Origin: a virus
Lineage: Duplodnaviria; Heunggongvirae; Uroviricota; Caudoviricetes
Length of the DNA stretch: 62,478 nucleotides
Strand: one strand, 5' to 3'
IMG/VR virus record: IMGVR_UViG_2877263951_000003
Positions 1 to 36,148 of the stretch are shown piece after piece. The notes under the pieces were generated by a model. The model ran no database searches and was not told where the DNA came from. It saw only the letters and a list, made by a program, of their open reading frames with translations. The stretch's first letter is position 1; each line of letters starts with the position of its first letter. Both the position numbers and the translations under genes were made by a program.

Positions 1-1812
1 ATGCTCAGAAACATTTCATCCTGTTTATTTCCACATATCAGCACAATTACATCCCCCAACCATTATTTGTCCGAATGGGATGATTGGGAGAAACAGGGGT
101 TACCGGAAGAACAGCGTACTGAGGCGGTAAGAAGACTTCGTGCATGTCTTACCTCTAAGGGGCATAAACTGGACCTGCGAGCCTTGGCGCTTTCCTCGCT
201 ACCTGTACTCCCTGCTTGCATTAAAAAGCTTGATGTGAGCTGTAATAAATTAACCATCCTTACTGATTTACCTGAAAATATTAAAGAACTTATTGCAAGA
301 GATAATTTCTTAACACATATATCTGCATTACCACATTATCTAATAACTTTGGATGTGTCCGAAAATCAATTAGAGAATCTGCCGTTATTACCAGACACCA
401 TCAAATCACTAAGCGCAGAGTATAATAGGTTATCCACACTGCCTTCATTACCCTTGAATTTAAAAAAACTTGAGGTTAGGAACAACGAACTGCAAACTCT
501 TCCATCTCTGCCTTCTAATCTTAAGATACTTAAGGTTGCGCACAACCATCTTACTGAACTGCCCCCTTTACCTAGGAGACTGCAACTTCTTTTTGCATAT
601 AGCAATAGATTAAGCAACTTACCAAACATCCAAGAAAATATTATCATGAGAAGATTTTTTTATTTTGAAAACAACCAAATAACTACAATCCCGACAAATC
701 TTTTTCGTTTAGATCCTCATATAACTATTGAGATTGCAAATAACCCCTTATCAGATCAAACTCTGCTATTCTTAATACAGCAAACTTCGGTTCCAAATTT
801 TAACGGGCCTCAGTTTCGTATTTCCCTGTCAGACCAAAACAGACTGTTTTTACGCCAGATGTTGCCGCAAAATTTACATTCGCGCCATATCAGAGTCATC
901 ACTGAAGGGGGGCAGAACTTTCAGATCCCCCCTCTTCCCGAAACTGTGGCAGCCTGGTTTCCTGAAGCAGATCGTCGGGAGGTTTCTACACAATGGACTT
1001 CTTTTTCCACCGAGGAGAATTCCCGGGCATTCTCCGCGTTCCTTGACCGCCTTTCCGATACCGTCTCTGCACGCAATACCTCCGGATTCCGTGAACAGGT
1101 CGCTGCATGGCTGGAAAAACTCAGTGCCTCTGCGGAGCTTCGACAGCAGTCTTTCGCTGTTGCTGCTGATGCCACTGAGAGCTGTGAGGACCGTGTCGCG
1201 CTCACATGGAACAATCTCCGGAAAACCCTCCTGGTCCATCAGGCATCTGAAGGCCTTTTCGATAATGATACCGGCGCTCTGCTCTCCCTGGGCAGGGAAA
1301 TGTTCCGCCTCGAAATTCTGGAGGACATTGCCCGGGATAAAGTCAGAACTCTCCATTTTGTGGATGAGATAGAAGTCTACCTGGCCTTCCAGACCATGCT
1401 CGCAGAGAAACTTCAGCTCTCCACTGCCGTGAAGGAAATGCGTTTCTATGGCGTGTCGGGAGTGACAGCAAATGACCTCCGCACTGCCGAAGCCATGGTC
1501 AGAAGCCGTGAAGAGAATGAATTTACGGACTGGTTCTCCCTCTGGGGACCATGGCATGCTGTACTGAAGCGTACGGAAGCTGACCGCTGGGCGCAGGCAG
1601 AAGAGCAGAAGTATGAGATGCTGGAGAATGAGTACCCTCAGAGGGTGGCTGACCGGCTGAAAGCATCCGGTCTGAGCGATGATGCGGATGCGGAGAGGGA
1701 AGCAGGAGCACAGGTGATGCGTGAGACTGAACAGCAGATTTACCGTCAGCTGACTGACGAGGTACTGGCCCTGCGATTGTCTGAAAACGGCTCACAACTG
1801 CACCATTCATAA
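1..1812 (+). CDS. ipaH: IpaH-family type III effector, LRR domain plus C-terminal NEL E3 ubiquitin ligase domain
   Basis: N-terminal half is leucine-rich repeats (LxxLPxLPxxL); C-terminal ~300 aa contains the CEDR catalytic Cys motif and ends ...ENGSQLHHS; C-terminal domain near-identical to the CDS at 59656..61419. The ORF begins at window position 1, so the true N-terminus may lie upstream of the window. Confidence 0.85.
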   Translation: MLRNISSCLFPHISTITSPNHYLSEWDDWEKQGLPEEQRTEAVRRLRACLTSKGHKLDLRALALSSLPVLPACIKKLDVSCNKLTILTDLPENIKELIARDNFLTHISALPHYLITLDVSENQLENLPLLPDTIKSLSAEYNRLSTLPSLPLNLKKLEVRNNELQTLPSLPSNLKILKVAHNHLTELPPLPRRLQLLFAYSNRLSNLPNIQENIIMRRFFYFENNQITTIPTNLFRLDPHITIEIANNPLSDQTLLFLIQQTSVPNFNGPQFRISLSDQNRLFLRQMLPQNLHSRHIRVITEGGQNFQIPPLPETVAAWFPEADRREVSTQWTSFSTEENSRAFSAFLDRLSDTVSARNTSGFREQVAAWLEKLSASAELRQQSFAVAADATESCEDRVALTWNNLRKTLLVHQASEGLFDNDTGALLSLGREMFRLEILEDIARDKVRTLHFVDEIEVYLAFQTMLAEKLQLSTAVKEMRFYGVSGVTANDLRTAEAMVRSREENEFTDWFSLWGPWHAVLKRTEADRWAQAEEQKYEMLENEYPQRVADRLKASGLSDDADAEREAGAQVMRETEQQIYRQLTDEVLALRLSENGSQLHHS

Positions 1813-2555: not shown

Positions 2556-2674
2556 GGTGCATTCCTCACGATGTGCGAATAAAAAGCCCGGGCATTGCGC
2601 CAGAGACATGTGAGGTAGCCTGAGTTTAACGGACACTCCTTCCTGAAATAGAATGGCATCAGAAGGAGCTAATA

Positions 2675-2977
2675 ATGAGCAGAAAAACCCAACGTTACTC
2701 TAAATAGTTCAAAGCCGAAGCTGTCAGAACGGTTCTTGAAAATCAACTTTCGATCAGTGAAGGCGCTTCCCGATTATCTCTTCCTGAAGGCACTTTAGGA
2801 CAATGGGTTACCGCCGCCAGAAAAGGGCTCGGTACTCCTGGTTCCCGCACGGTGGCTGAACTGGAATCTGAAATTCTGCAACTGCGTAAGGCGTTAAATG
2901 AAGCTCGCCTTGAGCTCGATATATTAAAAAAAGCAACAGCGTATTTTGCACAGGAGTCGCTGAAAAATACGCGTTAA
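2675..2977 (+). pseudogene. IS600 orfA with in-frame amber codon at 2705..2707
   Basis: Reads MSRKTQRYSK then TAG where the other copies have GAG (KEFKAEAV...); the rest of the frame is intact. Confidence 0.8.
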
Positions 2978-3012
2978 TCGAACAATGGCGACAACAATTT
3001 CCCATTGAAGCG

Positions 3013-3831
3013 ATGTGTCAGGTATTTGGTGTATCCAGGAGCGGTTATTACAACTGGGTACAGCATGAACCCTCAGACAGAAAACAAAGTGATGAGCGGC
3101 TAAAACTGGAGATTAAGGTGGCACATATCCGCACTCGCGAAACATATGGAACCCGGCGGCTCCAGACGGAGCTGGCAGAGAATGGCATCATCGTTGGTCG
3201 TGACCGACTGGCACGTCTTCGTAAGGAGCTGAGGCTACGCTGTAAGCAGAAACGCAAGTTCAGAGCGACTACGAACCCGAACCACAATCTGCCAGTTGCG
3301 CCAAATCTGCTGAACCAGACGTTCGCTCCTACAGCACCAAATCAGGTCTGGGTGGCGGACCTGACGTATGTTGCCACACAGGAGGGATGGTTGTACCTCG
3401 CTGGCATCAAAGATGTTTATACGTGCGAAATTGTCGGCTACGCCATGGGAGAGCGCATGACAAAAGAGCTGACAGGTAAAGCCCTGTTTATGGCGCTCAG
3501 GAGCCAGCGCCCACCTGCCGGGCTAATCCACCACTCTGATCGAGGTTCACAGTACTGCGCATACGATTACCGGGTCATACAGGAGCAGTCTGGTCTGAAA
3601 ACATCAATGTCGCGTAAAGGTAACTGTTACGACAACGCTCCGATGGAAAGCTTCTGGGGAACGCTGAAAAATGAGAGCCTGAGCCACTATCGTTTTAATA
3701 ACCGGGATGAAGCCATCTCAGTAATACGGGAATACATTGAGATTTTCTACAATCGTCAGCGTCGTCACTCTCGTCTGGGGAATATCTCCCCGGCAGCCTT
3801 CAGGGAAAAATATCATCAGATGGCTGCTTAA
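3013..3831 (+). CDS. IS600 orfB transposase (DDE catalytic domain), 272 aa
   Basis: IS3-family signature WVADLTYVATQEGWLYLAGIKD ... HSDRGSQY ... CYDNAPMESFW; identical to the copies at 31063..31881 and 36752..37570. Confidence 0.9.
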   Translation: MCQVFGVSRSGYYNWVQHEPSDRKQSDERLKLEIKVAHIRTRETYGTRRLQTELAENGIIVGRDRLARLRKELRLRCKQKRKFRATTNPNHNLPVAPNLLNQTFAPTAPNQVWVADLTYVATQEGWLYLAGIKDVYTCEIVGYAMGERMTKELTGKALFMALRSQRPPAGLIHHSDRGSQYCAYDYRVIQEQSGLKTSMSRKGNCYDNAPMESFWGTLKNESLSHYRFNNRDEAISVIREYIEIFYNRQRRHSRLGNISPAAFREKYHQMAA

Positions 3832-3874
3832 AAAAAGAACAAATGGTAGTGTCCGCTATTGCCAGTACACCTCA

Positions 3875-4800: not shown

Positions 4801-5637
4801 TGAGGTGTACTGGCAATAGCGGACACTACCATTTGTTCTTTTTTTAAGCAGCTATCTGATGATATTTTTCCCTGAAGGCTGCCGGGGAGATATTCCCCAG
4901 ACGAGAGTGACGACGCTGACGATTGTAGAAAATCTCAATGTATTCCCGTATTACTGAGATGGCTTCATCCCGGTTATTAAAACGATAGTGGCTCAGGCTC
5001 TCATTTTTCAGCGTTCCCCAGAAGCTTTCCATCGGAGCGTTGTCGTAACAGTTACCTTTACGCGACATTGATGTTTTCAGACCAGACTGCTCCTGTATGA
5101 CCCGGTAATCGTATGCGCAGTACTGTGAACCTCGATCAGAGTGGTGGATTAGCCCGGCAGGTGGGCGCTGGCTCCTGAGCGCCATAAACAGGGCTTTACC
5201 TGTCAGCTCTTTTGTCATGCGCTCTCCCATGGCGTAGCCGACAATTTCGCACGTATAAACATCTTTGATGCCAGCAACATACGTCAGGTCCGCCACCCAG
5301 ACCTGATTTGGTGCTGTAGGAGCGAACGTCTGGTTCAGCAGATTTGGCGCAACTGGCAGATTGTGGTTCGGGTTCGTAGTCGCTCTGAACTTGCGTTTCT
5401 GCTTACAGCGTAGCCTCAGCTCCTTACGAAGACGTGCCAGTCGGTCACGACCAACGATGATGCCATTCTCTGCCAGCTCCGTCTGGAGCCGCCGGGTTCC
5501 ATATGTTTCGCGAGTGCGGATATGTGCCACCTTAATCTCCAGTTTTAGCCGCTCATCACTTTGTTTGAAGTGGCACACTGAATTTGGCCACCTGAACAGA
5601 GGTGATATGCTCACCTCAGAACAACACAGGTGCTCCA

Positions 5638-6806
<1,169 letters not shown>

Positions 6807-6922
6807 CCACTTCAGTTTTCTGTCTGAGGGTTCATGCTGTACCCAGTTGTAATAACCGCTCCTGGATACACCAAATACCTGACACATCGCTTCAATGGGA
6901 AATTGTTGTCGCCATTGTTCGA

Positions 6923-7225
6923 TTAACGCGTATTTTTCAGCGACTCCTGTGCAAAATACGCTGTTGCTTTTTTTAATATATCTCGCTCAAGGCGAGCTTC
7001 ATTTAACGCCTTACGCAGTTGCAGAATTTCAGATTCCAGTTCAGCCACCGTGCGGGAACCAGGAGTACCGAGCCCTTTTCTGGCGGCGGTAACCCATTGT
7101 CCTAAAGTGCCTTCAGGAAGGGATAATCGGGAAGCGCCTTCACTGATCGAAAGTTGATTTTCAAGAACCGTTCTGACAGCTTCGGCTTTGAACTCTTTAG
7201 AGTAACGTTGGGTTTTTCTGCTCAT
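6923..7225 (-). CDS. IS600 OrfA (copy B), 100 aa
   Basis: MSRKTQRYSKEFKAEAVRTVLENQLSISEGASRLSLPEGTLGQWV... intact. Confidence 0.85.
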   Translation of the reverse strand: MSRKTQRYSKEFKAEAVRTVLENQLSISEGASRLSLPEGTLGQWVTAARKGLGTPGSRTVAELESEILQLRKALNEARLERDILKKATAYFAQESLKNTR

Positions 7226-7440
7226 TATTAGCTCCTTCTGATGCCATTCTATTTCAGGAAGGAGTGTCCGTTAAACTCAGGCTACCTCAATATGCTTTCC
7301 TTCCAGGTAAACCTCGTGAACAATGTTATCAGTAGTTGCAACAGTGGCTTCATAATTGGTGTTCATGTTTTTCTCCTTAATTAAGGTTGAGCGAATCCCT
7401 GCCATTGCTGGCATAAATTCAGTTTCGAATAGTCAGTTAA

Positions 7441-8293: not shown

Positions 8294-8350
8294 GATGGCA
8301 GCCTCGATAGTCAGTTTAAATGACTCACCACCAGAGGTAGCAATCTCATG

Positions 8351-8429
8351 GGTGGTGAGACGCACAGGGTTGCTACAACCGGTGACTACCGAAACCGGCC
8401 AGCCTTGCGGCTGCCCTGCACGCCCCACC
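8351..8429 (-). ncRNA. Candidate structured RNA element upstream of rha (paralog of 22900..22978)
   Basis: 16-bp closing stem GGUGGGGCGUGCAGGG / CCCUGUGCGUCUCACC (4 G-U pairs) enclosing a GCAA-loop hairpin (CAGCC/GGCTG) and a CCGG-12nt-CCGG hairpin; same architecture with compensatory changes in the second copy. Confidence 0.4.
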
Positions 8430-8457
8430 ATAATCTGAATGTGGCTGTGCTTGACGC

Positions 8458-8484
8458 ATAAAAAAACCGCCTGAGCGCGGTTAT
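8458..8484 (-). terminator. Rho-independent terminator immediately upstream of the structured element
   Basis: Minus-strand AACCGC-GCTCAG-GCGGTT followed by TTTTTTT; conserved at 22846..22868. Confidence 0.55.
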
Positions 8485-9134
8485 GCGCAGTAGTCATCGT
8501 CGGGGTAGCAATCCCGGCACCCGTTTTATGAGGTGCAGGTGCACTATAATTCCACCCGTTCTGGTTTTCAATAGCTACATTCAACATTTTCTCTTTCCTT
8601 TCATCACCGAAGTGAACTTTGTTGATGCGGTGCCTGGTGCCTCCAGGTGACGTTAACCAGTTAACAATTACAGTTGGCTTTCCCACCCAAACCAATAAGG
8701 ACTAACATGACTTTTAACTGTGCCGCGTGCGCATAGCCGCATTCACCGCATCACAAAATTCACTTTAAAAAGGGCGGACATCAGCCAGCAATTAAACCGA
8801 TGCCGCCAACTGGTACTTCACACAGCAATGTCGTTATTTACAACCGGAAGCGCACTCCCACCATTTAAATTTCACAGACAAGACCGACTCTTTATGGATA
8901 CCGGAAATGCGCCTTCGTGTTGTGCCCGGTTTTATTTCACCACTTCCGGGCTTTGGTGGTATCTTTACTGAAGTTCTCACACAACCAGTAAGGAAATGAA
9001 TATGCCAACGTATCTCGCCAGAGTAGAACTATATAATGCTGAGTAGACTGGCCCCCTGAATCTCCAGACAACCAGTATCACTTATTTAAGTGATAGTCTT
9101 AATACTAGTTTTTAGACTAGTCATTGGAGAACAG

Positions 9135-9500
9135 ATGATTGATGTCTTAGGGCCGGAGAAACGCAGACGGCGTACCACACAGGAAAAGATCGCAATTGTT
9201 CAGCAGAGCTTTGAACCGGGGATGACGGTCTCCCTCGTTGCCCGGCAACATGGTGTAGCAGCCAGCCAGTTATTTCTCTGGCGTAAGCAATACCAGGAAG
9301 GAAGTCTTACTGCTGTGGCCGCCGGAGAACAGGTTGTTCCTGCCTCTGAACTTGCTGCCGCCATGAAGCAGATTAAAGAACTCCAGCGCCTGCTCGGCAA
9401 GAAAACGATGGAAAATGAACTCCTCAAAGAAGCCGTTGAATATGGACGGGCAAAAAAGTGGATAGCGCACGCGCCCTTATTGCCCGGGGATGGGGAGTAA
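9135..9500 (+). CDS. insC: IS2 OrfA (InsC-like)
   Basis: [56 protein letters not shown]... Confidence 0.85.
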
Positions 9501-10363
9501 GCTTAGTCAGCCGTTGTCTCCGGGTGTCGCGTGCGCAGTTGCACGTCATTCTCAGACGAACCGATGACTGGATGGATGGCCGCCGCAGTCGTCACACTGA
9601 TGATACGGATGTGCTTCTCCGTATACACCATGTTATCGGAGAGCTGCCCACGTATGGTTATCGTCGGGTATGGGCGCTGCTTCGCAGACAGGCAGAACTT
9701 GATGGTATGCCTGCGATCAATGCCAAACGTGTTTACCGGCTCATGCGCCAGAATGCGCTGTTGCTTGAGCGAAAACCTGCTGTACCGCCATCGAAACGGG
9801 CACATACAGGCAGAGTGGCCGTGAAAGAAAGCAATCAGCGATGGTGCTCTGACGGGTTCGAGTTCTGCTGTGATAACGGAGAGAGACTGCGTGTCACGTT
9901 CGCGCTGGACTGCTGTGATCGTGAGGCACTGCACTGGGCGGTGACTACCGGCGGCTTCAACAGTGAAACAGTACAGGACGTCATGCTGGGAGCGGTGGAA
10001 CGCCGCTTCGGCAACGATCTTCCGTCGTCTCCAGTGGAGTGGCTGACGGATAATGGTTCATGCTACCGGGCTAATGAAACACGCCAGTTCGCCCGGATGT
10101 TGGGACTTGAACCGAAGAACACGGCGGTGCGGAGTCCGGAGAGTAACGGAATAGCATAGAGCTTCGTGAAAACGATAAAGCGTGACTACATCAGTATCAT
10201 GCCCAAACCAGACGGGTTAACGGCAGCAAAGAACCTTGCAGAGGCGTTCGAGCATTATAACGAATGGCATCCGCATAGTGCGCTGGGTTATCGCTCGCCA
10301 CGGGAATATCTGCGGCAGCGGGCTTGTAATGGGTTAAGTGATAACAGATGTCTGGAAATATAG
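9458..10363 (+). pseudogene. insD: IS2 orfB (InsD-like) with in-frame amber codon at 10157..10159
   Basis: Frame stops at ...[12 protein letters not shown] and continues [19 protein letters not shown]... to 10363; the canonical IS2 sequence I recall has GAG here. Confidence 0.75.
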
Positions 10364-10604
10364 GGGCAAATCCACTGAGCCAGAGGATTACGAAGGGCTT
10401 CATAAATATATGCTCTCACTAGGATTCAGGAGAACGATCCCCCATGGAGATGGTTCGTATAATCAACTCCCGGACGGAACTTATGTTTCCGAAAAGGGCG
10501 GTGATATTTATCAAATTCGCAGCCAGATATCTGACTATGCAGACCGACTATCCGGGTATCGCGCGTCTGTTTTTGTTTGCGAATTCAGTCAATGCGCATG
10601 GTAT

Positions 10605-12361: not shown

Positions 12362-13145
12362 ATGGCTTCAAACTGGATAAAGCTCGAGGTTATTACGCCG
12401 GATAAGCCGGAAATATTCAGGCTTGCTGAGATTCTGAATATTGATCCAGATGCCGCATTAGGGAAGGTTATTCGCTTCTGGGCATGGGCGGATCAACAAA
12501 TGATAGACGGTAATGCAGATTGTAACGCTCGCGGCGTTACAAAAAGTGCAATAGATCGCATCACTTTTATGTCTGGTTTTGCTGATGCGTTAATTCAGGT
12601 TGGATGGCTGGTCGAAAATGACGGTGGGCTTTCTCTACCTAACTTTGAACGTCATAACGGAAAAAGCTCTAAAAAACGGGCGGTTACAAACGAGCGAGTA
12701 ACAAAAATACGCGAACTGAAACGAAAAGGTAACGCTGCCAGCGTTACACAAACGGATCAAAAAGCGTTACCAGTGGAAGAGGAAGAGGAAGAGGAAGATC
12801 TAAATACTGATCTCCCCCTAAATCCCCCTCGCCAAAAACGAGCGTCTAAAAAATTCGAGCCGGAGGCTATTGAGCTGCCCGATTGGTTGCCGGAAACACT
12901 CTGGCATGAGTGGGTCCGGTTCAGACAGGCATTGCGAAAACCGATTCGAACGGAGCAGGGCGATACGGGAACTGGAAAAATTCCGTCAGCAGGGTTTTAC
13001 ACCTGAGCAGGTGATTCGACACAGCATCGCCAATGAATACCAGGGCCTGTTCGCGCCGAAAGGTGTTCGGCCTGAGACGTTGCTCCGACAGGTTAACACC
13101 GTCTCGTTGCCGGACAGTGCGATCCCGCCAGGCTTCAGGGGGTAA
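12362..13145 (+). pseudogene. YdaU-like replication protein, frameshifted
   Basis: ORF 12362..13006 and overlapping ORF 12870..13145 (..AIRELEKFRQQGFTPEQVIRHSIANEYQGLFAPKG..) are in different frames; together about 261 codons, consistent with one gene split by an indel near 12900..13006. Contains a (GAAGAG)n run encoding EEEEEEE. Confidence 0.5.
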
Positions 13146-13151
13146 CGGACC

Positions 13152-13898
13152 ATGAAAAATATTGCGACAGGCGGCGTTCTGGAACGCATCCGCCGACTGA
13201 CCCCGCAACATGTAACCGCCCCATTCAGAACGGTAGCGGAGTGGCGCGAGTGGCAACTTGCTGAAGGCCAGAAACGTAGCGAGGAGATCAACCGCCTGAA
13301 TCGCCAGTTGCGGGTGGAAAAAATTCTGAATCGCTCAGGCATCCAGCCGTTGCACCGTAAATGCTCGTTTGCGAATTACCAGGTGCAGAACGACGGCCAG
13401 CGATACGCGTTAAGCCAGGCGAAATCCATCGCCGATGAACTGATGACCGGGTGTACAAATTTTGCGTTCAGCGGAAAACCTGATACCGGGTAGAATCACT
13501 TAGCGGCAGCTATCGGGAACCGCCTGCTGAAAGACGGTCAGACAGTGATTGTGGTTACCGTGGCTGATGTTATGAGCGCCCTGCACGCCAGCTATGACGA
13601 CGGGCAGTCAGGCGAAAAATTTTTGCGGGAGCTGTGCGAAGTGGATCTGCTGGTTCTTGATGAAATTGGCATTCAGCGCGAGACGAAAAACGAGCAGGTG
13701 GTGCTGCACCAGATTGTTGATCGCCGGACAGCGTCGATGCGCAGCGTGGGGATGCTGACAAACCTGAACTATGAGGTGATGAAAACATTGCTCGGCGAGC
13801 GGGTGATGGATCGCATGGTCATGAAAGGCGGGCGCTGGGTTAATTTTAACTGGGAGAGCTGGCGTCCGAATGTTAGCCATTCGAGGGTTGTTAAGTAG
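13152..13898 (+). pseudogene. YdaV-like DnaC/IstB-family ATPase with an amber codon in the Walker A motif
   Basis: ...FSGKPDTG-TAG-NHLAAAIGNRLLKDGQTVIVVTVADV...LLVLDEIGIQRE...; TAG at 13491..13493 where a Lys codon (GKPGTGK) is expected; downstream frame intact to 13898. Confidence 0.7.
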
Positions 13899-16503: not shown

Positions 16504-16953
16504 ACTCCTGCTGTGTAACACCGTGCCACCGGAGAAAGCCGATGGCACATATACAACTGGTCAAACAAACCTCTTCCGGATTACTTCTCCCGGCGACGCC
16601 GGAGAGTTGCGATTTTCTGCATCAAATCAAAATAGGTGAGTGGATACACGCAGACTTTAAGCGTGTGCGTAACTACGCATTCCACAAGCGTTTTTTCAAA
16701 CTCCTGCAACTGGGTTTCGATTACTGGACTCCGGTCGGTGGGGCGATCACGCCTCGCGAACGAAAACTGGTGTCCGGTTTCGTTGATTACCTGTGTGAAT
16801 CAGTAGGCCGGGAACATACGCCAGCTCTGAGCGAAGCCGCAGAGCAATATCTGAATACAGTTGCGACACGCAGAACCCGTGATACGGCATTGCTAAAGTC
16901 GTTTGAGGCTTGAGGTGTACTGGCAATAGCGGACACTACCATTTGTTCTTTTT

Positions 16954-17745
16954 TTAAGCAGTCATCTGATGATATTTTTCCCTGAAGGCTGCCGGGGAGA
17001 TATTCCCCAGACGAGAGTGACGACGCTGACGATTGTAGAAAATCTCAATGTATTCCCGTATTACTGAGATGGCTTCATCCCGGTTATTAAAACGATAGTG
17101 GCTCAGGCTCTCATTTTTCAGCGTTCCCCAGAAGCTTTCCATCGGAGCGTTGTCGTAACAGTTACCTTTACGCGACATTGATGTTTTCAGACCAGACTGC
17201 TCCTGTATGACCCGGTAATCGTATGCGCAGTACTGTGAACCTCGATCAGAGTGGTGGATTAGCCCGGCAGGTGGGCGCTGGCTCCTGAGCGCCATAAACA
17301 GGGCTTTACCTGTCAGCTCTTTTGTCATGCGCTCTCCCATGGCGTAGCCGACAATTTCGCACGTATAAACATCTTTGATGCCAGCAACATACGTCAGGTC
17401 CGCCACCCAGACCTGATTTGGTGCTGTAGGAGCGAACGTCTGGTTCAGCAGATTTGGCGCAACTGGCAGATTGTGGTTCGGGTTCGTAGTCGCTCTGAAC
17501 TTGCGTTTCTGCTTACAGCGTAGCCTCAGCTCCTTACGAAGACGTGCCAGTCGGTCACGACCAACGATGATGCCATTCTCTGCCAGCTCCGTCTGGAGCC
17601 GCCGGGTTCCATATGTTTCGCGAGTGCGGATATGTGCCACCTTAATCTCCAGTTTTAGCCGCTCATCACTTTGTTTTCTGTCTGAGGGTTCATGCTGTAC
17701 CCAGTTGTAATAACCGCTCCTGGATACACCAAATACCTGACACAT
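16954..17745 (-). CDS. IS600 orfB with 9-codon in-frame deletion (probably inactive)
   Basis: 263 aa; LTYVAGIKD in place of LTYVATQEGWLYLAGIKD, i.e. loss of residues just after the first catalytic Asp. Confidence 0.8.
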   Translation of the reverse strand: MCQVFGVSRSGYYNWVQHEPSDRKQSDERLKLEIKVAHIRTRETYGTRRLQTELAENGIIVGRDRLARLRKELRLRCKQKRKFRATTNPNHNLPVAPNLLNQTFAPTAPNQVWVADLTYVAGIKDVYTCEIVGYAMGERMTKELTGKALFMALRSQRPPAGLIHHSDRGSQYCAYDYRVIQEQSGLKTSMSRKGNCYDNAPMESFWGTLKNESLSHYRFNNRDEAISVIREYIEIFYNRQRRHSRLGNISPAAFREKYHQMTA

Positions 17746-17780
17746 CGCTTCAATGGGAAATTGTTGTCGCCATTGTTCGA

Positions 17781-18083
17781 TTAACGCGTATTTTTCAGCG
17801 ACTCCTGTGCAAAATACGCTGTTGCTTTTTTTAATATATCTCGCTCAAGGCGAGCTTCATTTAACGCCTTACGCAGTTGCAGAATTTCAGATTCCAGTTC
17901 AGCCACCGTGCGGGAACCAGGAGTACCGAGCCCTTTTCTGGCGGCGGTAACCCATTGTCCTAAAGTGCCTTCAGGAAGGGATAATCGGGAAGCGCCTTCA
18001 CTGATCGAAAGTTGATTTTCAAGAACCGTTCTGACAGCTTCGGCTTTGAACTCTTTAGAGTAACGTTGGGTTTTTCTGCTCAT
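17781..18083 (-). CDS. IS600 OrfA (copy C)
   Basis: Identical to the other intact orfA copies. Confidence 0.85.
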   Translation of the reverse strand: MSRKTQRYSKEFKAEAVRTVLENQLSISEGASRLSLPEGTLGQWVTAARKGLGTPGSRTVAELESEILQLRKALNEARLERDILKKATAYFAQESLKNTR

Positions 18084-18380
18084 TATTAGCTCCTTCTGAT
18101 GCCATTCTATTTCAGGAAGGAGTGTCCGTTAAACTCAGGCTACCTCAGCTTTCCGCGAGTGGGTAGCCATTCAGGCCGGATTTTACACCGAGCATTTTTA
18201 TCCGGACGGTAGCCGTGGGTGTCGGGCGAAATCTATCGCGTTTGCGAATATGGACGAAACCGAGTTTCAGCAGGTTTATAAATCTGTACTGAATGTGCTG
18301 TGGAACTGGATTCTGTTCCGTAAATTTTCCTCTCCGGAACAAGTCGAAAATGTGGCCGCGCAGCTGCTGGAGTTTGCGTA

Positions 18381-18671: not shown

Positions 18672-18782
18672 TTTACCCAACGAATACAGGAAAAAGCGGA
18701 GAACACCTTCGTCTCACCACGCTGGAAAGTGTCTGGATTCAGGGAAAACTACGTATGTGGGGGCGCTGGTCGTATATTGGTG
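18668..18782 (+). pseudogene. N-terminal 38 codons of a gene truncated by IS911 copy 2
   Basis: MIYPTNTGKSGEHLRLTTLESVWIQGKLRMWGRWSYIG then IS911 end; no matching continuation after the IS. Confidence 0.3.
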
Positions 18783-18854
18783 TGAAGTGGCACACTGAAT
18801 TTGGCCACCTGAACAGAGGTGATATGCTCACCTCAGAACAACACAGGTGCTCCA

Positions 18855-20023
<1,169 letters not shown>

Positions 20024-20032
20024 CCACTTCAC

Positions 20033-21115
20033 AATGGGGTTGTTCAACTGGTTAACTCACTCGGCGGGTCATGCCGGACGCGAGTTAAAACTGGCGTGAC
20101 ATACACATACAAGGACGATAAGCGGCATGGGATGGATTCATACGAGGCAAGAATCAGACTGACAAGAGAAATCAGGGAGGCCATCCGTTCACCACGACTC
20201 AATGGCAGATTAACTGCGCATCGATTCGAGGGCTGTGGGGTATTCGTCAGGAATGTTGAAAAAATCGGCAATGCAGAATGCTTGTGTATTATGGTCGATC
20301 ACCCTCGCCACCTGTATGTAACCAGGGGATATGTGGCGACGCATAACACCGAGGTTGTCGGGCATATGGCACTTGAGGCAATGCGTCAGGGTGTGAAGAC
20401 GTGCATCGCGTCACTTGAGCTGAAGCCTGGTATTCTCCTTAAGCGACTTACCCGTCAGGCAACGTGCTGCAAGATGCCGCCAGTGCTGGAAATTGACTCT
20501 GCATTTAAATTTTATGACGAAAGACTTTGGGTGTTTGGCCTGACTGGAACGGCGAAAGCCGACAGGCTGATCGAAATATTCGACTACGCTCGCCGCCGAT
20601 ACGGGATCCAGTTATTCATCATCGACAGCCTGATGAAATGTGGCATAGGCGACGATGACTATAACGGGCAGAAGGCGTTTGTTGACTCGATTTGCGACTT
20701 CAAAAACAAAACAAACTCCCACGTCATTCTCGTTACTCACTCGCGAAAAGGAGACAGCGAAGAAAAACCAACCGGGAAAATGGACGTAAAAGGCTCTGGA
20801 GCGATAACAGGCCTGACAGACAAACTTTTCATCATCTGGCGTAACAAGGCTCGCGAGAGAGCGTTACAGAGAGTTCAGAGTGGTGAAAAGATGTCAGAGA
20901 AGGACGAACAGCTACTGGCATCTCCGGCATCTGTTTTGATGCTTGAAAAACAACGTAACGGCGAAGGTTGGGAAGGTGGTGTTCCGTTGTTCCTTGACGA
21001 GCAATCGCACCAGTTCCTGCAACTTGAATCAGGATCGCCATATAGCTACATCGCCAATATGCCGAAATCGGAATATGACGAGGCGTGGCGACAGGAAAAC
21101 GTGACGGAGTATTAA
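20033..21115 (+). pseudogene. RecA-fold ATPase, DnaB/RepA-like helicase C-terminal region, N-terminus probably removed at the IS911 junction
   Basis: Frame is open from the IS end; Walker B-like LFIIDSLMK and ILVTHSRKG, GSGAITGLTDKLFIIWRN; no recognisable Walker A. Confidence 0.35.
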
Positions 21116-21174
21116 ATGACCATCTACATCACTGAGCTAATAGCAGGCCTGCTGGTAATCGCAGGCCTTTTTAT

Positions 21175-21468
21175 TTGGGGGAGAGGGAAGTGAACGATAG
21201 CTACCGACAGTTTGAAAACTGGTGGTCAAAAGACAAAAGCCAGTTCACAGGAGACGATGAATTAAAAGAGTTTGCTTGGGTGATATGGCAGGCATCGCGA
21301 GCAGCTATTGAACTGGATATCGACTGGCCCGAATCGAATGACGACTTTTGGAAAGATGGTGAAGAAGGTGCTTATGCGATGGGGCATGAGGATGGGAAGG
21401 ACAAAACGGTAATTGCAGTAATGAAAGCTATCAGAGCCGCTGGAATTAAAGAGAAGAATTTTCGATGA
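21175..21468 (+). CDS. Hypothetical acidic protein (97 aa)
   Basis: ORF preceded by GGGGGAGAGGG; no family recognised. Confidence 0.35.
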   Translation: MGEREVNDSYRQFENWWSKDKSQFTGDDELKEFAWVIWQASRAAIELDIDWPESNDDFWKDGEEGAYAMGHEDGKDKTVIAVMKAIRAAGIKEKNFR

Positions 21469-21875
21469 AGCAAACAATCTTCCTCCGAACTAAGCAACAA
21501 CAGCAAGCCGCAATAAATGCCATCCTCTCAACTCCTCTCGATAAAGACAAGCCAGTCACCATCCGCATTACTGACTACAAGCGAAATCTTGACCAGAACG
21601 CAAAATTTCACGCGATGCTGGCGGATATCGCTCGTCAGGTTCAATGGTGCGGCAAATGGTTAAAACCAGAACAATGGAAGGTTTTGTTGATCAGCGGTCA
21701 TGCAGTGGCAACAAAACAGGAAGCTGATGTTTTGCCCGGCCTTGAAGGAGAATGCGTCAACATTCGCGAAAGCAGCGCGCAGATGAGCGTGAAGCGCATG
21801 GCAAGTCTGATCGAGTACACAACAGCCTGGGCTATTGGTCAGGGTGTCAGATTTACCGACAGGAGGTATGAATGA
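21465..21875 (+). CDS. ninB: NinB-like recombination protein
   Basis: ...[52 protein letters not shown]... resembles lambda NinB as recalled; stop overlaps the ninE start. Confidence 0.65.
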
Positions 21876-22048
21876 GGCGACATCGACGAAGTTTCACCGA
21901 CATCATCTGCGAAAACTGCAAATACCTTCCAACGAAACGCTCCAGAAATAAACGCAAGCCAATCCCAAAAGAATCTGACGTAAAAACCTTCAACTACACG
22001 GCTCACCTGTGGGATATCCGGTGGCTAAGACATCGTGCGAGGAAATGA
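21872..22048 (+). CDS. ninE: NinE (58 aa, below the ORF-track length cut-off)
   Basis: Translates [58 protein letters not shown], matching lambda NinE as recalled. Confidence 0.65.
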
Positions 22049-22089
22049 CTATTTATCCGGTGCGCCGCCAGAATGACGGCGCGGTGTGG

Positions 22090-22398
22090 TTAAACGAAGC
22101 GGATCTGGAGTTTTTTTCCAGTAGCGCGGGCGAATTTTTTTAGTGTGGCAAATGATGGGCCGCTGATACCTGATGCGAGATTACTTTCCATTCTGGTGAT
22201 CGCGGTCGCTTTTGTTCCCATTCGCTCGGCAACTTCAGCCTGAGTTAAGCCAGCTTCTTTGCGTGCTGCCAGCATTTCATCAAGCAGTGCGAATTCGTCA
22301 GCGATAGCGTCGTATTCTGCTTTAAAAGCCGGGTCTTCCATCCATTTGGCTGCCATTTCGTCGTGTGTCATGGTGGGGAGAGTGCGTTTACCAGTCAT
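22090..22398 (-). CDS. HigA-like antitoxin, XRE-family HTH
   Basis: ...AGLTQAEVAERMGTKATAITRMESNLASGISGPSFATLKKFARATGKKL; start overlaps the toxin gene's 3' end. Confidence 0.65.
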   Translation of the reverse strand: MTGKRTLPTMTHDEMAAKWMEDPAFKAEYDAIADEFALLDEMLAARKEAGLTQAEVAERMGTKATAITRMESNLASGISGPSFATLKKFARATGKKLQIRFV

Positions 22399-22716
22399 GC
22401 TTAACCTCCTTCATTCTGGTTTCAGCTTTCTTGCGTTCGGCTGGCGGTGTTTTCTGCGCTTTCTTTACAAAACTATGCAGCATGATGATGCGTTTCCCTG
22501 TCAGAGTGCAGTAAAAAACACGCGCGATCCCATCGTTGCCTTTAATTCTGAGTTCGAAAAGCCCGTCACCAAAGGCGCTGGTGTGAGGTTCTCCGAGATT
22601 GCTGCCGTATACCTTCATGCGTTCAACAAGATGCTGGTATCTGGCACGCATACTCAATGGAAGCTGATCGACCTCCAGTCGGACCTCTTCACTGTAGTAT
22701 TCGATAGTGTAGTTCA
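22388..22716 (-). CDS. RelE/HigB-superfamily toxin (gp49-like)
   Basis: MNYTIEYYSEEVRLEVDQLPLSMRARYQHLVERMKVYGSNLGEPHTSAFGDGLFELRIKGNDGIARVFYCTLTGKRIIMLHSFVKKAQKTP; toxin-then-antitoxin order as in higBA. Confidence 0.65.
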
Positions 22717-22845
22717 TACAGCAAAACATAACAAAATCGTTATATCTGCACAATATATTGATTCTGCAATTTCGGGACGTTACACTGTCTCTGCACCTTA
22801 TAAAGCGGGGGCCGGGATTGGCGTCCTGAAATTCAATATAGAGCA

Positions 22846-22868
22846 TAACCGCGCTCATGCGGTTTTTT
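22846..22868 (+). terminator. Rho-independent terminator upstream of the structured element and rha
   Basis: AACCGC-GCTCAT-GCGGTT followed by TTTTTT; paralog at 8458..8484. Confidence 0.55.
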
Positions 22869-22899
22869 CGTGTCATGAGCATTGCTACGCCCAAATTAT

Positions 22900-22978
22900 G
22901 GTGGGGCGTGCAGGGACATCGCAAGATGCGCCGGGTTCTATGTTGACCGGTTACGCCAACCCTGTACGTCTCACCACC
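22900..22978 (+). ncRNA. Candidate structured RNA element upstream of rha
   Basis: Closing stem 22900..22915 (GGTGGGGCGTGCAGGG) with 22960..22975 (CCCTGTACGTCTCACC); GCAA-loop hairpin CATC/GATG at 22917..22928; CCGG-12nt-CCGG hairpin at 22931..22950; stems differ from the paralog at 8351..8429 by compensatory changes. Confidence 0.4.
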
Positions 22979-23035
22979 TCTGTGATTGGCGTCCCATGTG
23001 GTGAGTTCTTTGAATTCAACATAGGGGCTGTCACC

Positions 23036-23599
23036 ATGACTACTCTCCCAACCCTCTCTCAACCTGAAATTGCCATCGTTGATGGTTAGGCTGTTACTTC
23101 ATCCCTGGCTGTTGCCAACTTCTTCTCTAAACGTCATGACGATGTTCTGAAAAAGATCCGCATTTTGGATTGTTCTCCAGAGTTTTGTGCCCGCAATTTT
23201 GCGGAGACATCAATTTTGGTACGCCAGCCCAACGGCGGTACTCGCAAACTTCCCTGCTACCAAATTACCCGCGGCGGCTTCGCCTTCCTTGCTATGGGCT
23301 TCACTGGTAAACGTGCCGCCCGGTTCAAAGAGGCATACATCAATGCCTTTAACCAGATGGAGAGGAGCTTATCAGGAGCTGGTGCGGCTGACATGTCATC
23401 TGTCGCACAAAACGCCAGAGGCGTATACCTGCATTTGCGTGAAATCCATCAAATCTGGACAAGCCAGCTTTACCCAATGCTTAAGGCCGTTGAATCTCCG
23501 CTGGCTGGCAAACTGTACGACCGTGTAGGTGATGCTGTTTTTGGTGCTGCACTTGTTGATTCCAGGCTGAATGGTTCTGACAAGGAGGTGCGCCCATGA
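23036..23599 (+). pseudogene. Rha-family regulatory protein with in-frame amber codon at 23087..23089
   Basis: MTTLPTLSQPEIAIVDG-TAG-AVTSSLAVANFFSKRHDDVLKKIRILDCSPEF...ITRGGFAFLAMGFTGKRAARFKEAYINAFNQME; the other rha copy has CGC (Arg) at this position. Confidence 0.65.
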
Positions 23600-24725: not shown

Positions 24726-25613
24726 GTGACAGCGATGATGACGTTTAACCTGCGTGAACAACAAAAAAGACTACAGGCGCGAATGGATGAGTTACGGGCA
24801 GAGATTGCATTTGCTCAGAAGGGCGAAAAGCCATGGCCTTATCGTTCCTGCCTGATGCGTGAAGGTCGCGGATATTGCGAAAAACATGGCGAATATCACA
24901 CGCATATACTGGTGTGGAGCGATCGTAATGGCGAGGACAGAGAAGAAATTTCATGCTGCCCTGACTGCTTAATCGCTGAGGCCAACGATTTGACCATGGA
25001 GCTGTCGTCCATCAAGGCGGAAGAGCTGACTGATAACGCCGGAATTGCCCTGCGTTTTCGGGACTGCGAGTTTGATAATTATCTGGAGGTTAATCCTGGC
25101 GCAGCCAGAAATCTTGCGGCCTGTCGCCGCTATGCGGAGAACTGGCCAGATATGCTGGAGAACGGTACCAGTCTTGTTATGACCGGCAGTTGTGGTACCG
25201 GAAAAAATCATCTGGCTGTGGCTATGGCAAAACACATCATCCGTAACTATCTGGCCAGTGTGGAGATCACCGACGTGATGCGCCTTACCCGTGCTGTGAA
25301 AAATTGCTGGCGGAATGACAGCGAAAAAACAGCGGATGAAGTTATTGAGCGTTATGCGTCAATGGATTTGCTGATCATCGACGAAGTTGGCGTTCAGTTT
25401 GGCAGCGCGGCTGAAATGGCTATTTTGCAGGAAATTATCAACGCCAGGTACGAAAGTATCTTGCCCACCATTCTGATCAGTAACCTCTCACCGGAAGAGT
25501 TGTGGGCGTTCATCAGTCCCCGAATTGCCGACAGGATCACAGACGGGGGACGCAACTGGTTGTCGTTTAACTGGCCCAGTTACCGTTCTCGTATCAGAGG
25601 TGTGGCTGCATGA
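24726..25613 (+). CDS. DnaC/IstB-like helicase loader ATPase
   Basis: Walker A GSCGTGKNHLAVAMAKH, Walker B LLIIDEVGVQ; C-terminal half aligns with the ydaV-like gene at 13152..13898. Confidence 0.75.
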   Translation: MTAMMTFNLREQQKRLQARMDELRAEIAFAQKGEKPWPYRSCLMREGRGYCEKHGEYHTHILVWSDRNGEDREEISCCPDCLIAEANDLTMELSSIKAEELTDNAGIALRFRDCEFDNYLEVNPGAARNLAACRRYAENWPDMLENGTSLVMTGSCGTGKNHLAVAMAKHIIRNYLASVEITDVMRLTRAVKNCWRNDSEKTADEVIERYASMDLLIIDEVGVQFGSAAEMAILQEIINARYESILPTILISNLSPEELWAFISPRIADRITDGGRNWLSFNWPSYRSRIRGVAA

Positions 25614-27001
25614 CAACTCCAGTATGGCGTAACGATGACCTTGAAGGCGCTGTCATCGGCGCGTTCTTTCTGCGCGGAGCAGATCCTGAAGTGATGGATA
25701 TTCTGGCCACACTGCCAGCGGACGTTTTTTCTGTACGAGCGTATCAGGATATCTATACAGGCATCTGCAGACAGGCCCGTGTTTCAGGAGTGATTGACCC
25801 CGTGCTGTTGTGTAATGAGATGCCGGAACTTGCCCCGGTGATTACTGATACCGGGCGTAAAACCTGGGTGAAGTCTTCACTGGAGCACTATGTTGCAGCG
25901 TTGCGGCGCAATGCCGCACTGCGCGATGCAGAAAAAACACTGAATGAGGCGCTGCAGAAATTACGTGATGCGCATACCTGTGAAGCAGCTGAAGATGCCC
26001 TGAAGGATGCGCAGAACATGATGGTCACACTGTCGACAGGAAAGGGCGTCATTCAGCCGGTACATATTGATGATGTGCTTCCGGAAGTGGTTGAGCGTGT
26101 TGAATGCCGGAATCAGGGGCTGGAGAAATCCAGGACGTTGATGACCGGTATTGATGAACTGGACGCAAAAACAGGCGGTATGGAGCCCGGAGACCTGGTA
26201 TTCATTGCCGCCCGTCCTTCGATGGGGAAAACCGAACTTGCGCTGGACATCATCGACAAGGTGACTGAGCAGGGGCATGGTGTGCTTCTGTTCACCATGG
26301 AGATGGCGAACATCCAGATTGGTGAACGTATGGTGTCTGCGGCTGGAGGGATGCCAGTATCACGCCTGAAATCTGTGGCTCACTTTGAAGATGAAGACTG
26401 GACGCGTTTCTCACAAGGGGTGGGGCGGATGACCGGGCGCAATATCTGGATGGTGGACCAGGCGAACCTGGCCATTGATGAGATATGCGCAACAACGAAA
26501 CACCACCTGATTAAATATCCGGAAACGGCGCTGGTGGTGGTTGATTATCTCGGGCTGATAAAAACCCGAACCACGGGGCGTCATGACCTTGCCGTGGGTG
26601 AAATCTCAAAGGGGCTTAAAGGCCTGGCAAAATCCGGTGGTTTTCCGTTGATTGCGCTGAGCCAGCTCTCCCGCGGTGTGGAGTCCAGACCCAATAAACG
26701 TCCCATGAACTCAGACCTGAAAAATTCCGGAGAAATAGAGGCGGATGCAGACATCATTCTGATGCTTTACAGGGATGAAGTGTACAACCCGGATACGCAG
26801 GCCAGGGGCATCGCAGAAATCAATATCACGAAACAACGTAACGGTTCTCTGGGAACGATTTACCGGCGTTTTTATAACGGACATTTTCTGCCTGTGGACC
26901 AGGAAAGTGCACGGGTGCTTTCCACTCCCATGAAGCCCGGCAATCCGCGCAGATACAGTAATAAACGAACTGACAGCAGTAAGATGGAGCGTTTCTTTTG
27001 A
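25610..27001 (+). CDS. DnaB-family replicative helicase
   Basis: Walker A ARPSMGKTELALDI, ..LALSQLSRGVESRPNKRP..., ..IILMLYRDEVY.. typical of DnaB C-terminal domain. Confidence 0.8.
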   Translation: MTTPVWRNDDLEGAVIGAFFLRGADPEVMDILATLPADVFSVRAYQDIYTGICRQARVSGVIDPVLLCNEMPELAPVITDTGRKTWVKSSLEHYVAALRRNAALRDAEKTLNEALQKLRDAHTCEAAEDALKDAQNMMVTLSTGKGVIQPVHIDDVLPEVVERVECRNQGLEKSRTLMTGIDELDAKTGGMEPGDLVFIAARPSMGKTELALDIIDKVTEQGHGVLLFTMEMANIQIGERMVSAAGGMPVSRLKSVAHFEDEDWTRFSQGVGRMTGRNIWMVDQANLAIDEICATTKHHLIKYPETALVVVDYLGLIKTRTTGRHDLAVGEISKGLKGLAKSGGFPLIALSQLSRGVESRPNKRPMNSDLKNSGEIEADADIILMLYRDEVYNPDTQARGIAEINITKQRNGSLGTIYRRFYNGHFLPVDQESARVLSTPMKPGNPRRYSNKRTDSSKMERFF

Positions 27002-28122: not shown

Positions 28123-28199
28123 GGCCCTTTAGCTCAGTTGGTCAGAGCGAGCGACTCATAATCGCCAGGTCGCTGGTTCAAGTCCAGCAAGGGCCACCA
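28123..28199 (+). tRNA. tRNA-Ile2-like (anticodon CAT; Met-type anticodon, Ile2 by similarity to ileX/ileZ)
   Basis: Cloverleaf: acceptor GGCCCTT/AAGGGCC, D-stem GCTC/GAGC, anticodon loop CTCATAA, T-stem GCTGG/CCAGC, encoded CCA. Confidence 0.8.
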
Positions 28200-28200
28200 A

Positions 28201-28277
28201 CCACCACTAGCTCATCCGGATAGAGCATCAACCTTCTAAGTTGACGGTGCGAGGTTCGAGTCCTCGGTGGTGGGCCA
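28201..28277 (+). tRNA. tRNA-Arg (anticodon TCT)
   Basis: Acceptor CCACCAC/GTGGTGG, anticodon stem TCAAC/GTTGA, loop CTTCTAA, T-loop TTCGAGT, encoded CCA. Confidence 0.75.
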
Positions 28278-28279
28278 GC

Positions 28280-28355
<76 letters not shown>

Positions 28356-28358
28356 TAT

Positions 28359-28433
<75 letters not shown>

Positions 28434-30173: not shown

Positions 30174-30637
30174 GCAGAGTCACCGCGATTATCTCCGCTC
30201 TGGTTATCTGCATCATCGTCTGCCTGTCATGGGCTGTTAATCATTACCGTGATAACGCCATTACCTACAAAGAGCAGCGCGACAAAAACGCCGGAGAACT
30301 GAAGCTGGCGAACGCAACCATTACTGACATGCAGCAGCGCCAGCGTGATGCTGATGCACTCGATGCTAAATACACGAAGGAGTTAGCTGATGCGAAAGCT
30401 GAAAATGATGCTCTTCGGCGCAAGCTTGATAATGGTGGTCGGGTGCTCGTCAAAGGAAAATGCCCTGTGCCATCCTCAGCCGAAACCTCCAGCGCCTCCG
30501 GCATGGGCAATGATGCCACCGTCGAACTCTCTCCAGTTGCTGGACGAAACGTTCTCGGTATCCGGGACGGAATCATCAGCGACCAGACAGCATTGAGAAT
30601 GCTTCAGGAGTACATCAGGACTCAGTGCCTGAAATAA
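30170..30637 (+). CDS. Rz i-spanin
   Basis: N-terminal TM segment [20 protein letters not shown] plus coiled-coil periplasmic domain; ATG overlaps the endolysin stop. Confidence 0.7.
30390..30596 (+). CDS. Rz1 o-spanin lipoprotein embedded in the +1 frame of Rz
   Basis: [44 protein letters not shown]: lipobox VVGC followed by a Pro-rich segment. Confidence 0.65.
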
Positions 30638-31062
30638 ATTTTTTTGCAAATCACAAAGTCCATTTAATGAGCCTCGCACTTGCGGGGCTTTTATATGTCC
30701 GCAGTAAACCGCGCATCGCAGCGCGTAACAATCCCGAGTCTTTCAGAAAGCTGAGCCTGAGAACTGCCGTATAGGTGAGGACCTCTCGGGGACGGCTTTT
30801 CTGTGCGAACAGGCTCAACTTTCTAAAGGAAATACCGACATGAACAAATCATTAACCGTTCTTCCTTCTGGCGAATACCCGACCATGAGCAGTCTTGAGA
30901 TGGTGGATTACATTAATGCTGATCGGAAATCCAAAGCGGAGGCGGAGGGGCTTGCGTTCCCCTGTAAGAAATATCGCAAACTCGAACACCGCAGTTTCAT
31001 GAAGAAAGTACCCAGGGTCTGAGGTGTACTGGCAATAGCGGACACTACCATTTGTTCTTTTT

Positions 31063-31881
31063 TTAAGCAGCCATCTGATGATATTTTTCCCTGAAGGCTG
31101 CCGGGGAGATATTCCCCAGACGAGAGTGACGACGCTGACGATTGTAGAAAATCTCAATGTATTCCCGTATTACTGAGATGGCTTCATCCCGGTTATTAAA
31201 ACGATAGTGGCTCAGGCTCTCATTTTTCAGCGTTCCCCAGAAGCTTTCCATCGGAGCGTTGTCGTAACAGTTACCTTTACGCGACATTGATGTTTTCAGA
31301 CCAGACTGCTCCTGTATGACCCGGTAATCGTATGCGCAGTACTGTGAACCTCGATCAGAGTGGTGGATTAGCCCGGCAGGTGGGCGCTGGCTCCTGAGCG
31401 CCATAAACAGGGCTTTACCTGTCAGCTCTTTTGTCATGCGCTCTCCCATGGCGTAGCCGACAATTTCACACGTATAAACATCTTTGATGCCAGCGAGGTA
31501 CAACCATCCCTCCTGTGTGGCAACATACGTCAGGTCCGCCACCCAGACCTGATTTGGTGCTGTAGGAGCGAACGTCTGGTTCAGCAGATTTGGCGCAACT
31601 GGCAGATTGTGGTTCGGGTTCGTAGTCGCTCTGAACTTGCGTTTCTGCTTACAGCGTAGCCTTAGCTCCTTACGAAGACGTGCCAGTCGGTCACGACCAA
31701 CGATGATGCCATTCTCTGCCAGCTCCGTCTGGAGCCGCCGGGTTCCATATGTTTCGCGAGTGCGGATATGTGCCACCTTAATCTCCAGTTTTAGCCGCTC
31801 ATCACTTTGTTTTCTGTCTGAGGGTTCATGCTGTACCCAGTTGTAATAACCGCTCCTGGATACACCAAATACCTGACACAT
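31063..31881 (-). CDS. IS600 orfB transposase (intact, 272 aa)
   Basis: Identical to 3013..3831. Confidence 0.9.
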   Translation of the reverse strand: MCQVFGVSRSGYYNWVQHEPSDRKQSDERLKLEIKVAHIRTRETYGTRRLQTELAENGIIVGRDRLARLRKELRLRCKQKRKFRATTNPNHNLPVAPNLLNQTFAPTAPNQVWVADLTYVATQEGWLYLAGIKDVYTCEIVGYAMGERMTKELTGKALFMALRSQRPPAGLIHHSDRGSQYCAYDYRVIQEQSGLKTSMSRKGNCYDNAPMESFWGTLKNESLSHYRFNNRDEAISVIREYIEIFYNRQRRHSRLGNISPAAFREKYHQMAA

Positions 31882-31916
31882 CGCTTCAATGGGAAATTGT
31901 TGTCGCCATTGTTCGA

Positions 31917-32219
31917 TTAACGCGTATTTTTCAGCGACTCCTGTGCAAAATACGCTGTTGATTTTTTTAATATATCGCGCTCAAGGCGAGCTTCATTTAA
32001 CGCCTTACGCAGTTGCAGAATTTCAGATTCCAGTTCAGCCACCGTGCGGGAACCAGGAGTACCGAGCCCTTTTCTGGCGGCGGTAACCCATTGTCCTAAA
32101 GTGCCTTCAGGAAGGGATAATCGGGAAGCGCCTTCACTGATCGAAAGTTGATTTTCAAGAACCGTTCTGACAGCTTCGGCTTTGAACTCTTTAGAGTAAC
32201 GTTGGGTTTTTCTGCTCAT
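31917..32219 (-). CDS. IS600 OrfA (KKSTAYF variant)
   Basis: 100 aa, one substitution relative to the other copies. Confidence 0.85.
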   Translation of the reverse strand: MSRKTQRYSKEFKAEAVRTVLENQLSISEGASRLSLPEGTLGQWVTAARKGLGTPGSRTVAELESEILQLRKALNEARLERDILKKSTAYFAQESLKNTR

Positions 32220-32699
32220 TATTAGCTCCTTCTGATGCCATTCTATTTCAGGAAGGAGTGTCCGTTAAACTCAGGCTACCTCAGTCCTCGGGGATGCAGC
32301 TGCAAAATTTTTTGCAACTGATACCTATATCAACGGAACAGGTGGTGTTGTGGAGAGGGATATTTGCAATTTTCCCAAGCGTGAAGCTTGCCTCATGGCA
32401 ATGAGCTACAGCTATGAGCTTCAGGCGCAGGTGTATGACCACATGACGGAGCTTGAGGGCGGGAAGGACATTAACCTCCTCGATTTCTCTGGCCTGACCG
32501 ATATGGCAATCAGCGAAATGCAAAACCGTGTCGCGGCTGCTGAGAAGTTCTCATTTGAAATGCACGGTCAAGCAGGTAGCGCTCTCATGACTCGTCGGAA
32601 GAAAGAGAAGAAGGCCATTAAAAAGGCTGAGCAGCTTGTGAAGGATCTGATTCAGTTCAAGCTATGTGACATGGGGGATTTCCCTGATGGTAAACCAGC

Positions 32700-32912: not shown

Positions 32913-33010
32913 GAGCTACTTTCACAACGGCTCTTCATTACAAAGCCCATCTACTGGTGGGCTTTGTAATGGCTTATACCCTACACGGGATAACTTAACT
33001 GATATCCCTT

Positions 33011-34147: not shown

Positions 34148-35316
<1,169 letters not shown>

Positions 35317-35388: not shown

Positions 35389-36148
<760 letters not shown>

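Follow-up and report, generated by a model that had tools for sequence, protein, structure and literature searches.

Four premature amber codons in a decaying composite prophage region of Shigella flexneri

Shigella reference genomes carry at least 199 pseudogenes (PMC7373316), and premature stop codons in enterobacterial pseudogenes are sometimes translated. In Salmonella, UAG made up 68.6% of the 35 in-frame pseudogene stops that were read through, and cytosine at positions -1 and +4 was reported as favouring UAG readthrough (PMC9122581). Genes of the phage and transposon category also have more than their share of in-frame stops (PMC7918605).

This work concerns a 62,478-nucleotide stretch of DNA (the window), in which a first-pass annotation had reported two insertion sequence (IS) genes and two phage genes each interrupted by a single in-frame TAG, attributing them most probably to independent pseudogenisation while describing the shared codon as a striking bias. 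We conclude that ordinary independent pseudogenisation very probably explains these alleles, with none of the TAGs being decoded. On this reading, four single-base nonsense mutations arose independently and are of differing age, each in a non-essential gene of a mobile element, within a composite lambdoid prophage region of S. flexneri that is degenerating; each TAG would simply truncate its product, with nothing decoding it.

Make-up and decay of the prophage region

Exact-protein matches place the window at approximately 1,045,985-1,108,462 of Shigella flexneri CP026765.1, and the sister accessions carrying the same alleles are S. flexneri genomes (PMC9455713). The closest annotated relatives in the E. 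coli collection include FDAARGOS_943/944, VL46 and CFSAN029787, which are ipaH-bearing and IS600-rich. The window is a composite lambdoid prophage region, decaying and rich in ISs: many IS copies accompany a prophage tRNA cluster and the early, lysis and structural modules of a lambdoid phage, and an ipaH gene lies towards either end (Table 1). Almost the whole window is bracketed by a 1.58 kb inverted repeat of 96.5% identity (1033-2610 and 58858-60435), which comprises the 3' half of an ipaH gene and a DUF4376 tail-fibre-assembly gene, and the approximately 56 kb between these repeats could undergo inversion through them. Three replication modules, respectively of the ydaU/ydaV type, with a truncated toprim primase, and with a DnaC-like loader and DnaB helicase, occur within this one "prophage", alongside two rha and immunity modules, and IS911-like copies stand at module joins (5560-6815 and 18777-20031). 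Hence the region looks like two or three prophages fused by IS-mediated deletion.

Decay near the amber codons, as for ordinary nonsense pseudogenes, is present in the form of a second lesion in the ydaV P-loop, five frameshifts (in cro, the ydaU-like gene, the portal gene, the tail-fibre gene and IS629 orfB) and at least seven IS disruptions, with insertions or IS-mediated truncations affecting recE, the DUF1367 and DUF1133 genes, the primase, a 198-aa rha-family gene and terS. Nonsense mutations therefore represent four of the at least 16 disabling lesions in the window. ISs have also been inserted into one another: within 33584-37918, terS is split by an IS600, the IS600 by an IS629-like element, and the IS629-like element is cut by an IS911-like element.

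Premature stops were surveyed by tblastn of annotated proteins from close, intact E. coli and EIEC relatives against the window, with DNA alignments added for 20032-22755 and 30632-33583. In the homology-supported coding regions of the window, this survey found the four TAGs and no further premature in-frame stop, be it TAG, TAA or TGA. A mechanical scan for stops between long open frames had returned 91 candidates, mostly TGA, which were uninformative, and the homology survey was used instead. In recE and the DUF1367 gene, what looked like additional stops lie inside IS600 ends and are not point mutations; further TAG candidates at 4439, 11612, 18542 and 58772 are out of frame, antisense or upstream relative to the real genes.

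Table 1. Coordinates of features in the window, with strand where assigned and the basis of each assignment.
Feature	Position	Strand	Basis or remark
ipaH gene	1-1812	+	one window end
IS600 copy 1, 1264 bp, otherwise intact	2611..3874	+	99.5% identity to copy 2 (self-BLAST)
TAG for GAG, Glu11 (codon 11) of orfA, IS600 copy 1	2705..2707	+	GAG in four other window copies or fragments
orfB of IS600 copy 1	3013-3831	+	272-aa open frame
IS600 copies with orfB deletion	4801-5566 with 6808-7289; 16911-18147
isrK and C4 antisense RNA region	8348-8536	-	Rfam
IS2, 1331 bp, CTGAG target-site duplication	9044..10374	+	inverted-repeat ends and duplication read directly
TAG for GAG, catalytic Glu of DD(35)E, IS2 insD/OrfB	10157..10159	+	comparison with intact IS2
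cro frameshift, G6 to G5	11740	+
Replication modules (three)	12362-13898; 20032-21115; 24735-27001
ydaU-like gene frameshift, 11-bp deletion	12958	+
ydaV-like DnaC/IstB-type helicase-loader pseudogene	13152..13898	+	PRK12377 profile; intact WP_000789009
GGT to GAT, Gly to Asp, ydaV P-loop (second disabling change)	13482..13484	+	orthologue comparison
TAG for AAG, Walker A Lys of ydaV-like gene	13491..13493	+	comparison with intact orthologue
isrK and C4 antisense RNA region	22793-22981	+	Rfam
rha (pRha-domain regulator) pseudogene	23037..23599	+	pRha profile match and orthologue alignment
TAG for CAG, Gln, in rha	23087..23089	+	99.4%-identical orthologue
Prophage tRNA cluster (CAT, Arg-TCT, Thr-TGT, Gly-TCC)	28123..28433	+	ARAGORN, Rfam, annotation of relatives
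IS600 copy 2	31020-32283		self-BLAST partner of copy 1
IS600 splitting terS	33789-33972 plus 36530-37613
IS911-like element cutting IS629-like element	34139-35388
IS629-like element, orfB frameshifted	35389-36529		ALIL pseudoknot 36078-36194
Portal gene frameshift, T5 to T6	40993	+
Tail-fibre gene frameshift, 4-bp deletion	58545	+
ipaH gene	59656-61419	-	opposite window end

Origins and spread of the amber alleles

Direct reading confirmed each of the four in-frame TAGs, and all four downstream frames run through to natural stops, as the first-pass annotation had described. Every TAG stands at a sense codon of the orthologous copies, and is one substitution away from it: the codons lost from IS600 orfA, IS2 insD, the ydaV-like gene and rha were GAG, GAG, AAG and CAG, through G>T, G>T, A>T and C>T mutations respectively. 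For three of the genes, these are the ancestral states that had been anticipated, namely the GAG of other IS600 copies, the GAG of intact E. coli IS2 and a Walker A Lys codon in ydaV. For rha, the premature TAG at a sense codon stood, but the CGC proposed as its prior state did not, as the 99.4%-identical orthologue has CAG; at the residue level, CGC is consistent with a 50%-identical paralogue in which Arg aligns with this position, but the paralogue does not show the ancestral state.

The two IS alleles are polymorphic. At the orthologous IS600 site, TAG was present in four of nine S. flexneri assemblies, and GAG in the other five. The window's IS2 has six differences from intact E. coli IS2. 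Relative to the Glu that it has lost, the second Asp stands 35 residues upstream and a Lys 7 residues downstream (...TDNGS...NGIAESFVKTIK), which identifies this Glu as the catalytic one of DD(35)E. The orthologous IS2 insertion site has TAG at three loci (L022, L025 and L045) and GAG at three others (L011, L013 and L018), and the TAG allele was found in approximately ten contigs from about five assemblies.

The amber IS2 also occurs elsewhere. Among the fetched loci (L021-L030), five more insertion sites, spread over four S. flexneri assemblies, have it without a single difference over its 1331 bp, each with a separate 5-bp target-site duplication (GGTTG, GCAAT, TTCAC, GGGAT and GTTAA); a sixth copy (L024) has three differences and lacks matching flanks. 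Hence this transposase-dead IS2 has transposed. IS3-family transposases have a preference for acting in cis, and the amber copies were presumably mobilised in trans by intact ones, to judge from these insertion sites. A look-up of IS2 orfA for intact helper copies in the source genome gave unrelated genomes only. The spread of a catalytically dead IS2 to several sites is the one item here that merits attention. Two IS600 copies have an in-frame deletion of approximately 27 bp in orfB in common (263 aa, compared with 272 aa), and thus a variant IS600 sub-lineage has been copied too.

The two phage alleles are far more widely indexed. The ydaV-like gene is 98.4% identical to intact WP_000789009. 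The AAG of the 98.8%-identical intact orthologue encodes the Lys of GKPGTGK, and the two fragments of the window's gene match the NCBIfam PRK12377 profile at positions 1-113 and 115-248, meaning that exactly one codon has been lost. The P-loop has become GKPDTG*, with the Gly-to-Asp change three codons upstream of the amber. This change was found in every genome with the ydaV TAG, both are common to all ten S. flexneri loci examined, and the truncated product is indexed in 437 blocks. Lineage-specific substitutions in ydaV number two to four across ten genomes, too few to gauge constraint downstream of the TAG. In rha, the part after the TAG matches positions 12-105 of the 108 in TIGR02681 (phage_pRha); the index has this downstream fragment in 1222 blocks, and the broken allele also occurs in independent Logan read assemblies.

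The reading frame of rha may begin at ATG 23037, or belong to an Ash-Rha ORF starting at 22898. Genes for isrK and C4 antisense RNAs lie directly upstream of both rha paralogues, an arrangement resembling the P1 c4-icd-ant or Gifsy isrK-type immunity modules. As these RNAs fall within the ORFs publicly annotated as Ash-Rha fusion proteins, translation of rha may in truth begin at ATG 23037, in which case the TAG would be its codon 18.

The very different spread of the four alleles in public assemblies means they are real and independent, of different ages, and not sequencing errors. The proposal that they are sequencing or assembly errors of one record is almost certainly wrong; it is refuted by each allele recurring in several assemblies made independently, among them NCBI long-read genomes and the Logan read assemblies. 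Recurrence in natural isolates likewise rules out engineered amber mutants.

Chance, readthrough and selection

To quantify how often nonsense mutation yields TAG, one-step paths to a stop were enumerated over 15.7 thousand codons of window genes. The expected TAG share of nonsense mutations under window codon usage was 0.39-0.52, being 41% for a uniform spectrum, 45-52% with a transition bias, and 39% for a G:C>T:A-heavy spectrum. The probability of all four being TAG was 0.024-0.073, and that of all four being the same stop 0.05-0.08, in both cases without correction for post-hoc picking of the pattern. The all-TAG set is thus barely more than chance, and with only four events a bias cannot be demonstrated. 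All four being TAG follows from TAG being the commonest one-step nonsense outcome under E. coli-type codon usage, in which CAG, GAG, AAG, TGG, TTG and TCG are common one-step sources. Hence the "striking bias" is not borne out, TAG being the most likely, or jointly the most likely, nonsense codon here (P ~0.02-0.07). The UAG share among read-through Salmonella pseudogene stops (PMC9122581) and the enrichment of in-frame stops in phage and transposon genes (PMC7918605) point the same way. There may be a mild real TAG excess, judged from one window at a nominal P of 0.02-0.07.

A lineage-specific mutational bias that makes TAG preferentially, such as oxidative G:C>T:A mutation, is very unlikely. 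Two of the four TAG events are G>T, and G:C>T:A accounts for three of about six polarised recent SNPs at orthologous loci, a very small sample. However, the remaining two events are A>T and C>T, and a G:C>T:A-heavy spectrum leaves TAG no more favoured than TAA (0.39 and 0.41, respectively), because GAA is common. The polarisation of SNPs was swamped by non-homologous IS insertion, which left only these six or so usable. Adding the IS2 amber to the three G:C>T:A SNPs of the source lineage (L012 and L038, set against sister S. flexneri loci) gives four such changes, a hint of a transversion-rich recent spectrum in a sample far too small for a conclusion.

Alternatively, the host lineage might tolerate or decode UAG, through either an amber-suppressor tRNA or a weak RF1 combined with near-cognate readthrough. 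Such decoding would soften the harm done by amber alleles and favour their retention, with some full-length protein still made from the four genes. We consider the decoding, and the retention that it would entail, highly improbable. All four of the nonsense codons are TAG, low-level UAG readthrough has been reported for enterobacterial pseudogenes (PMC9122581), and nonsense dgc pseudogenes of S. flexneri gave full-length products in E. coli BL21 (PMC11327459). Yet no tRNA with a CUA anticodon was detected in the 62-kb window by ARAGORN or Rfam; in the prophage tRNA cluster, the tRNA with a CAT anticodon is annotated as tRNA-Ile in relatives. Both ydaV (13896) and IS2 insD (10361) still end naturally in TAG, and TAG makes up approximately 2 of 65 natural terminators, which is low, but similar to the ~7-9% of E. 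coli given the sample size. The lost residues also differ (Glu, Glu, Lys and Gln), such that no single suppressor restores them. By established enzymology, no substitute is tolerated for either the DDE Glu or the Walker A Lys, and the ydaV P-loop additionally has the Gly-to-Asp change. The bases flanking the TAGs (A_T, A_A, G_A and T_G) lack cytosine at -1 and +4. Furthermore, the orthologues and sister IS copies have sense codons, and therefore the TAG positions are not conserved. Hence there is a very slim chance of a suppressor tRNA elsewhere in the genome, and it is extremely improbable that this S. flexneri lineage has elevated UAG readthrough, through such a tRNA or a weak RF1, with amber alleles partly expressed and preferentially kept. 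Were it so, the amber IS600 and IS2 copies could keep some activity.

Programmed recoding fares no better. The known recoding of the IS3 family is a -1 frameshift, and a recoding signal common to all functional copies is absent, as the other IS600 and IS2 copies have GAG. Within the window, Rfam detected the ALIL pseudoknot in the IS629 copy only. Pyrrolysine-type recoding is ruled out by the sense codons in orthologues, and by the differing residues.

The loss of function in these alleles could have been selected, with the loss of ydaV and rha grounding the prophage and the loss of transposase taming the ISs, and the use of TAG throughout being incidental. This is unlikely. Two TAGs fall exactly at catalytic residues (those of ydaV and IS2), the ydaV P-loop was struck twice, and fixation of the ydaV and rha alleles extends across many S. 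flexneri assemblies, but drift in a small-population pathogen predicts fixation equally. The nearby cro, ydaU-like, portal, terS and tail-fibre genes are broken as well, and consequently no single lesion was needed. Two of four TAGs at catalytic residues is not predicted by neutrality, and counts against neutral decay, although two cases prove nothing. The truncated products are probably inactive, and we infer that the alleles reached fixation through drift, or because active prophage and IS functions were selected against.

Comparison with known systems

The codons lost, the mutation classes, the spread of the alleles and the nearby decay all support the independent pseudogenisation favoured by the first-pass annotation, but not the bias that it supposed. 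The significance of the case is small: within a short piece of decaying genome, a run of identical premature stops need not mean recoding. Where codon usage is of the E. coli type, TAG is the class expected to predominate among nonsense mutations.

The "pseudo-pseudogenes" and UAG readthrough of Salmonella enterica are similar in being enterobacterial, and in that pseudogene in-frame stops are mostly UAG (PMC9122581). Unlike these, the TAGs of the window lack the reported cytosine context and are known here from sequence alone, and two of the sites need an exact catalytic residue, whereas readthrough supplies mostly Gln. With supE/supF-type suppression or stop-codon reassignment, the window has only the codon, UAG, in common; it differs in having no CUA-anticodon tRNA, in retaining TAG as a natural terminator, and in having TAG at positions that are sense codons for three different amino acids in orthologues. 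The amber IS2 resembles non-autonomous, transposase-defective ISs mobilised in trans, being catalytically dead yet present at several sites, although in this case the helper is putative.

The nonsense pseudogenes of Shigella genome decay are the closest match. These too arise through single-base sense-to-stop changes in dispensable genes, alongside frameshifts and insertions of IS1, IS2, IS600 and IS911 types, and their alleles vary between strains, with some fixed in lineages (PMC7373316). The window differs from this pattern in nothing material, its sole oddity being that all four stops are TAG, and it represents a compact example of prophage and IS decay in Shigella.
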